Source: Escherichia phage fEg-Eco06. From it: 45,491 bases of DNA. The position numbers were made by a program, and so were the translations under genes. Position 1 is the first letter of the stretch. Each line of letters starts with the position of its first letter. Under the pieces are notes generated by a model that was not told where the DNA came from, searched no databases, and saw nothing but the letters and a program-made list of their open reading frames with translations. This document shows positions 8,861 through 10,831 of this stretch, in pieces. The DNA is taken from the sequence record PQ141284.1; one strand, written 5' to 3'.

Positions 8861-10831
8861 ATGCTATTAACTTTAGTACCACAGGGTTTAACTATGAGCT
8901 TACTTACATCCCTCATCAGCCATCAGATATGGCTGCAACGCACCGCATCCGGTGAGGTGAAAGACCTCACACCGTTCATTCAGGAGATGCGGGATGAAAT
9001 TAAACGGCAGGTGCTGTTATTCGGTGACGACGGTCGTAGCACTGCGCGACTGAATAAATTGTTACGCGACCTTGAGGAAGCACTAACCGGACTTACGGGC
9101 GACTGGCAGACAAAGCTGACAGAAGACCTTAAGGAACTGGCGGCGTATGAGGCCGAGTGGAACGTAAAGACTCTGACCGCCAACGTTAACGCGGAATTTG
9201 TTACCCCTACCGCGGAACAGGTGTGGGCCGCTGCCGAGTTTCAGCCATTATCGTTGAGTGACAAGCCCGTTGATTTCACTAAGCTGATGGACGGCTGGGG
9301 TGAAACAGAAGTCGCGCGCCTGGTAACCGGCGTTAAGATGGGCTTTGTACAAGGCCAAACCACACGGCAGATTGTTAAGAACGTCGTAGGCGCTGGCGGA
9401 CTGGCGGACATCTCTGAGCGTAACGCGGCCACCGTAATCCGTACTGCACTGTCTCACGTATCCAACGAAGCACGTAACGAGACGTACCGCCAGAACGACG
9501 ACATCATCGAGAAATATGAGTGGGTGTCTACGCTGGACAGCCGTACCAGTACAACGTGTTTCACGGCTGAAACAGAATTAGCGCCCATCGCGGGGATGGA
9601 CGCGGTAATGCGCGGACTCTATTCAGGAAAAATCTTTACCATCGAACTTTCCAACGGCGAGAAGTTCAGTGGCACCCCGAAACACCCTGTACTCACGCAA
9701 TACGGATGGACTCCGCTTGATGAACTCGATCCAACTAAGCATGTCTTGTATACCACTGTTGACAAAGTGACTGTGCTCGAAACAGTGAAGAACATAAACA
9801 TGCCAGCCAGAGCGGATTATATTTTTAATACGCTCGCTGATTTCCCCATCAGGAAAATGGTAAGCACGAGTCCCGCGGCAACAGATTTCTATGGCGATGG
9901 AGTGGGACTCAATGGCAAAATCGACATTGTACGGGCCGATTGCAAACTGCGGAACTACGTCCACGCCAGCGGAATTAAACAATTCAAAAGCGAGGGTTTC
10001 AGTCTTATTCATAGCGCCGCTTTGCTGTCGGACGATAGCTCTGGCGATTTTCTCCTCCGGGGTGAATGTCCTGTGAGTGTGCCCGCGCTTAGCGAGGCCA
10101 AGTGTTTTGACCATAGAATAGAAAACTGTTTTGCTTACTTGGGTCCTTCTTATGCACTCAATAGGCGGGACGCCGGACTCGAACAATTCTATAGCCCTTT
10201 TTTGATTCAAAATGGTGTCGTTAGAAACCCAACCACGGGGTCGATCATGCATGAGTCCGAGCTTCTTGAGAAATGTTGTTACCGTGGTGGTAGTGACGCC
10301 GTAATTCTTGGCTATGATGCTGGCGGGAGTGCCATCTCGGTACAAAGAACAAATATCATCCGCATAAGCGTCGAGTTTAGAACGTGCCATGTTTATACCC
10401 TCTCTAGTAGTCAAGGATATTATACAGCAGGTAGTGCGATAGTCAAGAATTGCAGGGCCAGAGACGGGATGGCGTGGGAAATCGGTAAAGGTCCGATGCC
10501 CCCCGCCCATCCGAACTGTCGAAGTACCACTGCACCTGTAATCAGTTCGGAGTTCGACTTCCTGGATAAAGGCGCAAAACGCGCGGCTAAGGGTGCAGAA
10601 GGCGGCACTCAGGTAAGCGCAGACACCACATATTACGAGTTCCTGAAACAACAGCCCGCATGGTTTCAGGACCAGGCGCTCGGCCCGGTGCGAGGTAAGA
10701 TTTTCCGTAACAGCGGTATATCGCCGGAAGAGTTTCGCGTAATATCTGTAGATGGTTTCGGGAATCCGCTCACGCTTAAGCAGATGGCGGAACTCGATAA
10801 ACGTGTTGCTGATTATCTGAAAGGGGGATAA
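8861..10831 (+). CDS. head morphogenesis protein (Mu F / SPP1 gp7-like) interrupted by an intein
   Basis: 656 aa; exteins join to TLDSRTSTT|CRARDG...PPAHPNCRST, a Mu F-like signature; about 298 aa between them carry Hint blocks. Confidence 0.7.
   Translation: MLLTLVPQGLTMSLLTSLISHQIWLQRTASGEVKDLTPFIQEMRDEIKRQVLLFGDDGRSTARLNKLLRDLEEALTGLTGDWQTKLTEDLKELAAYEAEWNVKTLTANVNAEFVTPTAEQVWAAAEFQPLSLSDKPVDFTKLMDGWGETEVARLVTGVKMGFVQGQTTRQIVKNVVGAGGLADISERNAATVIRTALSHVSNEARNETYRQNDDIIEKYEWVSTLDSRTSTTCFTAETELAPIAGMDAVMRGLYSGKIFTIELSNGEKFSGTPKHPVLTQYGWTPLDELDPTKHVLYTTVDKVTVLETVKNINMPARADYIFNTLADFPIRKMVSTSPAATDFYGDGVGLNGKIDIVRADCKLRNYVHASGIKQFKSEGFSLIHSAALLSDDSSGDFLLRGECPVSVPALSEAKCFDHRIENCFAYLGPSYALNRRDAGLEQFYSPFLIQNGVVRNPTTGSIMHESELLEKCCYRGGSDAVILGYDAGGSAISVQRTNIIRISVEFRTCHVYTLSSSQGYYTAGSAIVKNCRARDGMAWEIGKGPMPPAHPNCRSTTAPVISSEFDFLDKGAKRAAKGAEGGTQVSADTTYYEFLKQQPAWFQDQALGPVRGKIFRNSGISPEEFRVISVDGFGNPLTLKQMAELDKRVADYLKGG
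9557..10450 (+). mobile_element. intein (Hint domain) within head morphogenesis gene
   Basis: starts with Cys (CFTAETEL), block B-like GTPKHPVLT, C-terminal block F/G-like VYTLSSSQGYYTAGSAIVKN followed by +1 Cys; no LAGLIDADG or HNH motif in this frame. Confidence 0.6.
9623..10390 (-). CDS. homing-endonuclease-like protein (two HTH motifs + DUF559/Vsr-like nuclease fold), encoded antisense within the intein
   Basis: 256 aa from ATG 10390 (track ORF 9623-10651 trimmed); IGPYNVDFAI...IAIEI...GWHVYVL resembles DUF559/Vsr-like PD-(D/E)XK domains; two HTH-like segments N-terminally. Confidence 0.6.
   Translation of the reverse strand: MARSKLDAYADDICSLYRDGTPASIIAKNYGVTTTTVTTFLKKLGLMHDRPRGWVSNDTILNQKRAIELFESGVPPIECIRRTQVSKTVFYSMVKTLGLAKRGHTHRTFTPEEKIARAIVRQQSGAMNKTETLAFELFNSAGVDVVPQFAIGPYNVDFAIESHSIAIEICCRGTRAYHFPDGEISERIKNIIRSGWHVYVLHCFEHSHFVNSGIQDMLSWIEFIKRSPSVLREYRVFRGATELLAVGKFDGKDFS

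Follow-up and report, generated by a model that had tools for sequence, protein, structure and literature searches.

Antisense homing endonucleases (HENs) of the LAGLIDADG type in inteins date back to Gorbalenya 1998 and Gogarten 2002, and VSR-like HENs associated with split inteins to Dassa 2009 (all as cited by Gosselin et al.). In a survey of PhagesDB, Gosselin, Arsenault and Gogarten (bioRxiv 10.1101/2025.01.02.630785) reported antisense VSR-like HENs in contiguous inteins of actinobacteriophages. In that preprint, a minor capsid protein is among the four host proteins of inteins with non-canonical HENs, the HENs were linked by HHpred to 3R3P, continued transfer was argued, vertical-looking patterns were seen for some VSR-like HEN inteins, the architecture was termed rare, and a free-standing HEN landing in an intein was put forward as the model. 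Here, a locus of this type was analyzed in Escherichia phage fEg-Eco06 (accession number, PQ141284.1; 45,491 nt, this whole stretch being called the window), a Kagunavirus-like E. coli siphophage (Guernseyvirinae). An 894-bp insert in its MuF-like head morphogenesis gene is interpreted as a mobile class-1 intein with a homing endonuclease that is encoded not as an in-frame domain but by a gene of its own on the other strand, a reading to which a probability of roughly 0.8 was assigned.

Anatomy of the insert and of the antisense gene

The open reading frame (ORF) at 8861-10831 (plus strand, 656 aa) encodes a MuF-like head morphogenesis protein, which was matched by Phage_Mu_F of Pfam (8.1e-9; 36.6 bits, above the cut-off of 29.6) and by phrog_241, head morphogenesis, at 2.6e-147. 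A preliminary description of the window had proposed that this ORF is interrupted by about 298 codons, and the interruption was confirmed at 9557-10450 (plus strand, 894 nt), where the insert was placed by alignment with intein-less homologues. The N-extein (8861-9556, plus strand; 232 aa with the C-terminal sequence ...TLDSRTSTT) was recognized by Pfam and PHROG and is collinear with the intein-less homologues, and the C-extein with its stop codon (10451-10831, plus strand; CRARDG...PPAHPNCRSTT...) was delimited by ORF reading, PHROG and comparison with empty alleles.

By its motifs, alignment and homologue profile, the insert is a class-1 intein of 298 codons extending from Cys1 to Asn298 (CFTAE...AIVKN, followed by Cys). 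Block B (T40-P-K-H43-P-V-L-T47) lies at 9674-9697, block F (H278-V-Y-T-L) at 10388-10402, and block G (A-I-V-K-N298 together with Cys+1, the first residue of the C-extein) at 10436-10453, all on the plus strand; the initial Cys, the TPKH motif at residues 40-43 and the AIVKN/Cys junction, from which a Hint domain had been suspected, were all present. In a plus-frame alignment of eight homologues, C1, T40, H43, N298 and Cys+1 were invariant, and the consensus sequences were G-T-P-N/K-H-P-V/I-L-T for block B, G-H-V-Y-N/T-L for block F and (I/V)-x-(H/S/K)-N followed by Cys for block G, the penultimate residue being Lys in the clade of the window and His or Ser in other members. A profile of these eight members matched the Mtu RecA intein (PI-MtuI) at 3e-8 and also matched more than 15 other solved inteins, with PI-PkoII, KlbA, RadA and DnaB inteins among its matches. 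Intein_splicing of Pfam covered both termini in relatives, one of them above the threshold (41.4 bits). The suspicion of a Hint domain was thus borne out at the level of the family profile and fell short for the window sequence alone, which scored below the Pfam threshold; motifs and profiles point to a Hint fold for this intein. The viability of phages isolated with the insert in this conserved head-morphogenesis gene (KMB36 and BEU35) argues for protein splicing.

The centre of the intein contained no Pfam or PHROG domain in the plus frame. An in-frame LAGLIDADG, HNH or GIY-YIG endonuclease was rejected by the lack of a Pfam or PHROG match, in line with the earlier remark that no LAGLIDADG or HNH motif is visible in this frame, and a group I intron or other structured RNA was rejected since no Rfam match was obtained at E<=1 and the plus frame is open and in frame.

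On the opposite strand, a gene of 255 aa plus stop (9623-10390, minus strand) begins with the ATG at 10390 and terminates with the stop codon at 9623-9625, its stop-to-stop frame being open to 10651, and runs codon-aligned antisense to intein residues 23-278. The two HTH-like segments that had been read in this ORF were recovered as two helix-turn-helix (HTH) units at residues 7-43 and 57-96 (10103-10372, minus strand) by Pfam HTH_7, by PDB entry 2lvs and by the helices of the AlphaFold2 (AF2) model, and presumably constitute a DNA-recognition module. They are followed by a Vsr-like nuclease domain at residues ~129-249 (9644-10006, minus strand) with the candidate catalytic residues E131, D157, E168 and R187. 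The AF2 model, computed from four sequences only, had a pLDDT (predicted local distance difference test score) of 74 and comprised two three-helix HTH units, a helical connector and an alpha/beta nuclease core of the Vsr type.

Profiles of Pfam and PDB assigned resolvase-type HTH_7, HTH_23 and the 2lvs tandem HTH to the N-terminal module; HTH_7 matched the window nuclease at 1.6e-4 and 9/10 family members, the best at 3.5e-9, and no NUMOD repeat was matched by the nuclease in these Pfam and PDB searches. A profile of 10 nuclease sequences was required to reach 3hrl (5.5e-4) and 3r3p (5.9e-4) in PDB, where it also matched the tandem HTH of 2lvs (3.3e-8), because phmmer with the nuclease domain alone gave only chance matches to tail sheath proteins. 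D157 was aligned with D196 of I-Bth0305I, a catalytic Asp that binds Mg and had been mutated in the construct used for crystallisation (PMC3239194), and E168 with an extra conserved acidic residue of the I-Bth0305I family. Each of E131, D157, E168 and R187 was kept in 138-141 of 142 representatives (the best matches of 450 aa or less in the exhaustive search given below). REase_MTES_1575 (PF18741) matched the window nuclease at 20.1 bits, below its cut-off of 38.2, and matched 7/10 relatives weakly (best 1.7e-7); DUF559 (PF04480) matched 1/10 relatives (2.1e-4). Of the DUF559/Vsr-like resemblance suggested beforehand, the Vsr part stood on the AF2 model, the 3r3p and 3hrl matches and the alignment of D157, and both DUF559 and MTES_1575 remained below the Pfam gathering score. 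The antisense ORF is a real gene for a nuclease with two HTH units and a Vsr/DUF559-like domain.

Predicted expression signals of this gene are embedded in the C-terminal intein blocks. A candidate sigma-70-type promoter (10419-10446, minus strand; TTGACT at 10446-10441, a 16-nt spacer and TATAAT at 10424-10419; 11/12 consensus positions) lies within the codons of blocks F and G, 28 nt upstream of the ATG. In the 45.5-kb window, three sites with at least 11/12 matches were found against 0.48 expected. The promoter position is conserved in the related loci L012 (10/12) and L013 (11/12), and similar elements occur in Aaphi23 and Vibrio PvVp04. A Shine-Dalgarno (SD)-like GAGAGGG (10398-10404, minus strand) is placed 7 nt upstream of the ATG, opposite the block F codons that follow the His (Y-T-L in the window), and GAGG(T/G)TATAAAC-ATG is conserved among the loci of proteobacterial phages. 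Wherever the start could be placed, the ATG or GTG of the nuclease reads on the plus strand as the CAT or CAC that encodes the His of block F, and the SD is found opposite the next codons; the window has CAT. Members of the coliphage clade have their -35 box opposite the codons for I-V-K in block G, and it may be speculated that this explains the unusual penultimate Lys. About 20 nt downstream of the nuclease stop, a terminator-like hairpin with a weak T tail was noted (9581-9603, minus strand) as a consensus match only. The other two 11/12 sites, at 37870 and 40792 (minus strand; TTGACA, 17 nt, TATAGT), are located upstream of minus-strand ORFs and may be phage early promoters that serve as a yardstick for the nuclease promoter.

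Codon register and selection on the two frames

The plus and minus frames are codon-aligned, codon position 2 being common to both and positions 1 and 3 exchanged, and both are open across 768 bp. With the codons aligned in this way, only TTA, CTA and TCA produce a stop on the other strand, and each frame remains open provided that these three codons are avoided in its partner. For a minus protein with 16 Leu and 19 Ser residues and at the codon usage of this phage, 6.4 plus-frame stops were expected, and the probability of an open plus frame was 7.5e-4, which agrees with the earlier judgement that two frames open over about 770 bp are unlikely by chance. Because another gene of the window (13165-14229) has a codon-aligned antisense frame open for 299 codons, openness alone says little; the recurrence of the two-frame layout in seven distant phage loci, three metagenome contigs and 80/80 IMG/VR loci means that homology settles the matter.

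Selection was examined with the window, L012 and L013 in an ungapped codon alignment (minus-frame identity 45-53%); a dN/dS estimate from the four phage copies of the insert was dropped, as their 4 variable columns in 894 nt were too few, and these diverged relatives and the pair Fosterous and Vivi2 were used instead. Over intein residues 101-260, the minus frame was 44-46% identical and the plus frame 24-28%, with mean BLOSUM62 scores of 2.1-2.2 and 0.6-0.9, respectively, and nucleotide differences were most frequent at plus position 1, the wobble position of the minus frame. Over residues 23-100 the frames were equally conserved (identity, 44-58% minus and 37-49% plus; mean BLOSUM62, 2.15-2.99 minus and 2.22-2.82 plus), and over residues 1-22, outside the minus ORF, conservation was seen in the plus frame only. 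When Fosterous and Vivi2 were compared, the differences at plus codon positions 1, 2 and 3 numbered 48, 11 and 33 in the overlap, against 3, 1 and 42 and 7, 4 and 35 in the two exteins. Both frames are kept open by selection, and the intein flanks are truly dual-coding; the better conservation of the minus frame in the centre indicates that the centre is nuclease-coding and that the plus frame is carried along.

If the minus ORF were a non-coding shadow, a by-product of codon usage in the codon-aligned antisense frame, the 299-codon run mentioned above would exemplify the proneness of such frames to long open stretches, and the antisense similarity of the homologues would mirror sense conservation, as it partly does (minus residues 234-239 are dictated by block B). 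This explanation is scarcely credible, for the minus frame is the better conserved one over 160 codons, with substitutions at its own wobble position, its product is predicted with confidence to fold into HTH units plus a Vsr-like nuclease, the candidate catalytic residues are near-invariant in the 142 representatives, an ATG or GTG, an SD and a predicted promoter are present, and the ORF is intact in 80/80 loci although the plus-strand gene offers it no protection.

A further possibility is that both frames are functional across the centre, the plus-frame middle being a DNA-binding or nuclease-assisting domain of the intein. Plus-frame motifs such as DF(H/Y)GD...(E/D)(I/V)(E/D)(I/V)V do recur, and residues 23-100 are equally conserved in both frames, but the motif just given is the reverse-complement image of A(I/V)E(V/I) and YN(L/V)DF of the nuclease, and comparison of the sequences suggests that such plus-frame motifs are exact images of these nuclease motifs. 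Together with the plus-frame identity of only 24-28%, the lack of any Pfam or PHROG domain in the plus-frame middle, and the gaps required there by MAFFT where the minus frame aligns without gaps, this makes a functional plus-frame centre very improbable.

Where the intein does constrain the nuclease, the mark is visible at the protein level. The C-terminal R-E-Y-R-V-(I/V)-R-G of the nuclease is the image of intein block B, the same codons of the window reading R-E-Y-R-V-F-R-G on the minus strand. Among the 142 representatives, minus residue 236 was V in 112, M in 26 and Leu in one, V and M corresponding to the reverse complements of the His codons CAC and CAT; residue 238 was mainly R, W or G (128/142) and residue 239 mainly G, R, S or C (136/142). 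The residues at the block-B positions are thus those expected from reverse complements of His, Pro and Thr codons. This fingerprint was found in 138/139 top representatives having a residue at position 236, which indicates that essentially all top members of the family are nested opposite an intein.

Elsewhere in the head region, a minus-strand ORF of 385 aa (12619-13776) was observed opposite the plus-strand ORFs 12425-13183 and 13183-14232; it may well be a chance shadow ORF.

Distribution of the family, empty alleles and mobility

By tblastn with the minus protein, relatives with 23-27% identity over ~90% of the length were obtained from the Gordonia phages Fosterous, Vivi2 and Affeca, Aaphi23, Aggregatibacter S1249, Idiomarinaceae 1N2-2, a Vibrio phage and many Salmonella jerseyviruses. 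Of the 40 records that were listed, those with annotation place the match under a head, MuF, minor-capsid, hypothetical or otherwise named gene, those of the Gordonia phages lying under MuF genes (7e-12 for Vivi2, 4e-10 for Fosterous and Affeca), and in the records listed for both tblastn queries the nuclease match was always on the strand opposite to the plus-frame intein match. In the seven loci that were fetched, the MuF ORF was uninterrupted across the Cys...Asn/Cys insert and was accompanied by a codon-aligned antisense ORF of 250-301 aa with an ATG. Word-indexed protein searches (~5.8 billion sequence clusters) returned three relatives of the minus protein and two of the intein, the only called homologues in that collection being held by three metagenome contigs with the same layout; homologues at 23-53% identity were always nested likewise. 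An exhaustive HMMER search of 1.84 billion cluster representatives gave 9,563 hits at E<=1e-3, 303 of them at E<=1e-30.

IMG/VR was scanned with a peptide pattern of the nuclease domain, and 80 of 286 confirmed stretches were kept. All 80 loci contained an intact nuclease ORF overlapping an opposite-strand ORF (277-1144 aa) that matched an intein hidden Markov model, and all 65 distinct pairs were codon-aligned with both frames open. No free-standing relative of the nuclease was found among these 80 loci or, by the block-B fingerprint, among the top 142 representatives, the context of weaker matches being outside the scope of the search.

In the Salmonella jerseyvirus loci L009 and L011 (1956-2705), the antisense nuclease is 250 aa long with one HTH unit only, and its ORF crosses almost the whole N-terminal Hint region, ending 3 nt from the intein start. 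Intein-containing capsid morphogenesis proteins of jerseyviruses have been noted in the literature, and part of the nuclease is covered in LC507823 (vB_StyS-sam) by ORF43, a 'hypothetical protein' annotated on the minus strand. KMB36 has no annotation for the nuclease gene, nor have the MuF genes examined from Salmonella, Vibrio, Aggregatibacter and Gordonia phages. The KMB36 intein is annotated in GenBank without the antisense gene, and an account in Arch Virol 2024 mentions the KMB36 insert as the first coliphage intein with no word of that gene. Since gene callers settle on a single frame at each locus, they overlook the nuclease gene.

Could the antisense protein serve a purpose other than or besides homing, as an HTH regulator, through antisense-RNA control or as a nuclease against competitors, and the module spread by general recombination? 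The two HTH units and a predicted early-type promoter of its own would suit such a role, antisense transcription across a late gene could be regulatory, and, by the title of PMC10055350, nuclease genes are reported to mark phage recombination boundaries. This is unlikely, because the family occurs essentially only inside inteins (80/80 loci; fingerprint in 138/139), it is closest in structure to Vsr and to a bona fide homing endonuclease, and its sporadic distribution fits a selfish element.

When megablast was run against 50,697 phage records, the gene was found in 182 records and the central segment in only three (BEU35, vB-Eco-KMB36 and Ec1-ASingh); the remaining records matched in two pieces covering 54-55% of the query, and in ~180 related phages lacking the 894-nt segment the extein sequence was continuous across the site. 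The insertion point inferred earlier was thereby confirmed, with one refinement: ordinary empty alleles read TS(T/A)I↓CRARDG (↓, insertion point) within TLDSRTS(T/A)I↓CRARDG, and the filled allele reads TSTT-intein-CRARDG. At the DNA level an empty allele, for example that of phage 590B or Bas71, reads ...AGTACGATT|TGCAGGGCC..., the bar marking the site.

Five phages or viral contigs with exteins that differ by 7-12% had inserts of 99.5-100% identity. Between the window and KMB36, 2/894 nt differed in the intein and 115/1077 in the exteins, and an IMG/VR virus (L019) carried an intein identical to that of the window at 894/894 positions between exteins of 93% and 91.6% identity. Near-identical inserts in diverged exteins imply that the module moved recently and bear the mark of recent homing or, at the least, of horizontal spread in the very recent past; they also lend indirect support to site-specific cleavage of the element-free allele. 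The intein-plus BEU35 and intein-minus BEU33, both from sewage in Russia, have exteins identical at all 1,073 comparable positions. The N-extein of the window is identical to that of BEU35 and BEU33 (0/696), and its C-extein differs at 22/381 nt; the recombination junction hence coincides with the intein, as expected if homing drags flanking sequence along.

BEU33 (L002, OM632667) is the nearest empty allele. Its site at 2185-2200, compared with 9545-9560 of the window, reads AGT ACT↓TGC (TST↓C) and is shorter by one codon than all the other empty alleles checked (AGT ACG ATT↓TGC, TSTI↓C), which corresponds to a 3-nt deletion of GAT beside the insertion point, and the gap relative to the window is accordingly 897 nt, not 894. 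No microhomology was found at this junction. BEU33 could be an endonuclease-escape allele from imprecise repair, or could result from an intein deletion that took one codon along.

The same data bear on the view that the element is a vertically inherited relic, in which the intein splices, homing has been lost and the nuclease is inactive or decaying. The missing canonical general-base His of Vsr and the vertical-looking patterns that Gosselin et al. give for some VSR-like HEN inteins would fit it. It is distinctly unlikely in view of the 99.5-100% identity of the insert between exteins 7-12% different, its presence in only 4 of some 180 kagunavirus records, the existence of the isogenic plus/minus pair BEU35/BEU33, and the fact that no copy has a frameshift or stop.

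Nearly all (~95%) of 64 distinct IMG/VR inteins are inserted at H-P-x↓C-R-C of MuF, minor-capsid-2 or VG15-type proteins. Three of the 64 (L019-L021), along with L012, L013 and the four phage copies, use TS(T/R)(T/Q)↓C(R/S)xxDG, a site of that protein located 22 codons further upstream. In the window, the H-P-x↓C-R site (PPAHPN↓CRSTT; 10499-10531, Cys at 10517-10519) is unoccupied, and in Salmonella jerseyviruses this site is occupied by related antisense-nuclease inteins. As two occupied sites are known 22 codons apart, MuF offers two homing sites to two lineages of one intein family.

A predicted protein of 238 aa from a 1,487-nt contig in NCBI (P0004) was 100% identical to the last ~105 intein residues plus CRARDG, but bore no relation to MuF in its N-terminal 90 residues or at its C-terminus; an assembly chimera or a recombinant fragment is the probable explanation.

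Proposed mechanism and comparison with known systems

In the proposed mechanism, translation of the late head operon would continue across the insert and yield a precursor of 656 aa. The Hint part at the N-terminus (residues ~1-75 with Cys1 and the TPKH of block B) and the C-terminal part (~270-298 with the HVYTL of block F, Asn298 and Cys+1) would excise 298 aa and ligate a MuF protein of 358 aa, and the ~190 central plus-frame residues (about 75-270), as the antisense of the nuclease gene with no function of their own, would be a tolerated linker. On the minus strand, the sigma-70-type promoter, SD and ATG within the block G/F codons would drive synthesis of the 255-aa HTH-HTH-Vsr-like protein. 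In a mixed infection, the nuclease would cut the intein-less MuF allele near TS(T/A)I↓CRARDG, and repair from the intein-plus genome would copy the whole module in.

Several observations weigh against a splicing intein with an active antisense homing endonuclease. For the window's own intein, Intein_splicing of Pfam gave 20.6-21.8 bits, below the cut-off of 35.8, AF2 of the plus-frame intein from a three-row alignment was uninformative (pLDDT 30), and the penultimate residue is Lys instead of the usual His. Some natural inteins can dispense with the penultimate His. No conserved counterpart of the general-base His (H69 of Vsr, H213 of I-Bth0305I) was found in the nuclease family, which reads CCRG, HRTA, GGGW or TAFT at the H213 position; the composite EDxHD catalytic motif is only partly present (E131, D157 and E168 are kept, the His is not), and the chemistry may differ from that of Vsr and I-Bth0305I, or the enzyme may only nick. 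The nuclease promoter is a consensus match inside coding sequence, and convergent late transcription could silence the minus-strand gene. Ordinary recombination without help of a nuclease could likewise produce the near-identity of the inserts.

The locus is a natural case of long-range antisense dual coding, with ~255 common codons, selection visible on both strands, and ~50-80 codons in which a catalytic intein block and a nuclease segment use the same bases. The architecture is common and structurally stereotyped, which is relevant to the question of how endonucleases come to be associated with inteins. Intein and antisense nuclease may together be an old, co-evolving dual-coding unit that diversified jointly across phages of Actinobacteria and Proteobacteria, rather than the product of a recent HEN landing, a reading about as likely as not; the nuclease family is found essentially only nested. 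In such a unit, catalytic blocks of the intein would serve at once as pieces of the nuclease gene: block F as start codon and SD, block G as -35 box in the coliphage clade, and block B (TPNHPVL) as the C-terminal REYRV(I)RG strand of the nuclease. If the unit is old, the sequence of a ~190-residue plus-frame linker would be set entirely by the opposite strand. Kagunaviruses and jerseyviruses, which are candidates for therapy, carry in this module a mobile putative nuclease that would promote exchange of flanking head-gene sequence.

The preliminary description had supposed that the arrangement may be undescribed. This did not hold, since Gosselin et al. 2025 report antisense VSR-like HEN inteins and cite antisense LAGLIDADG HENs from 1998 onward; the window is a further member of a described arrangement, in a different host group and at a secondary insertion site. 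As far as could be judged by searching its full text, the Gosselin preprint makes no mention of a universal codon-aligned register, of a start, SD or promoter embedded in blocks F and G, of the overlap with block B, of spread among Proteobacteria phages or of the abundance of the family. Like the actinophage inteins of that preprint, the locus has a contiguous intein ORF with an intact Vsr-like nuclease ORF antisense in the HEN region, a host of the minor-capsid kind and signs of ongoing transfer, and across 91% of its length the window nuclease shares 24-27% identity with the ORFs found antisense to the MuF genes in Fosterous, Vivi2 and Affeca, which are Gordonia phages. It differs from the actinophage examples in its host, an E. 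coli Kagunavirus, and from members at the usual H-P-x↓C-R-C site in its insertion at TSTT↓CRARDG, 22 codons upstream. What goes beyond that account is the reach of the window ORF across blocks B and F, the position of its predicted signals within blocks F and G, and the nesting of hundreds of family members; the antisense VSR-like HEN architecture is extended here from actinophages to enterobacterial and marine phages.

With the intein of Synechocystis DnaX and other antisense-LAGLIDADG inteins, as cited by Gosselin et al., the locus shares an endonuclease on the strand opposite the intein/extein frame, and it differs from them in its Vsr-like nuclease, host gene and organism. Comparators of the EDxHD/Vsr-like type are I-Bth0305I (PDB 3r3p; Taylor et al. 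2011, PMC3239194) and the 'fractured genes' with split inteins (Dassa et al. 2009). Unlike I-Bth0305I and Vsr, the window family lacks a conserved general-base His (H213/H69), its N-terminal module consists of two resolvase-type HTH units and not of the NUMODs of I-Bth0305I, and, unlike HENs of introns or split inteins, its gene lies antisense inside a contiguous intein. With canonical bifunctional inteins such as PI-SceI and PI-MtuI, the window intein has in common the Hint blocks, a conserved Cys in an essential gene as insertion site and, as proposed, a homing life cycle; whereas those inteins carry an in-frame LAGLIDADG domain, the endonuclease of the window is encoded outside the intein polypeptide, on the other strand, with its own predicted promoter, ribosome-binding site and start codon.

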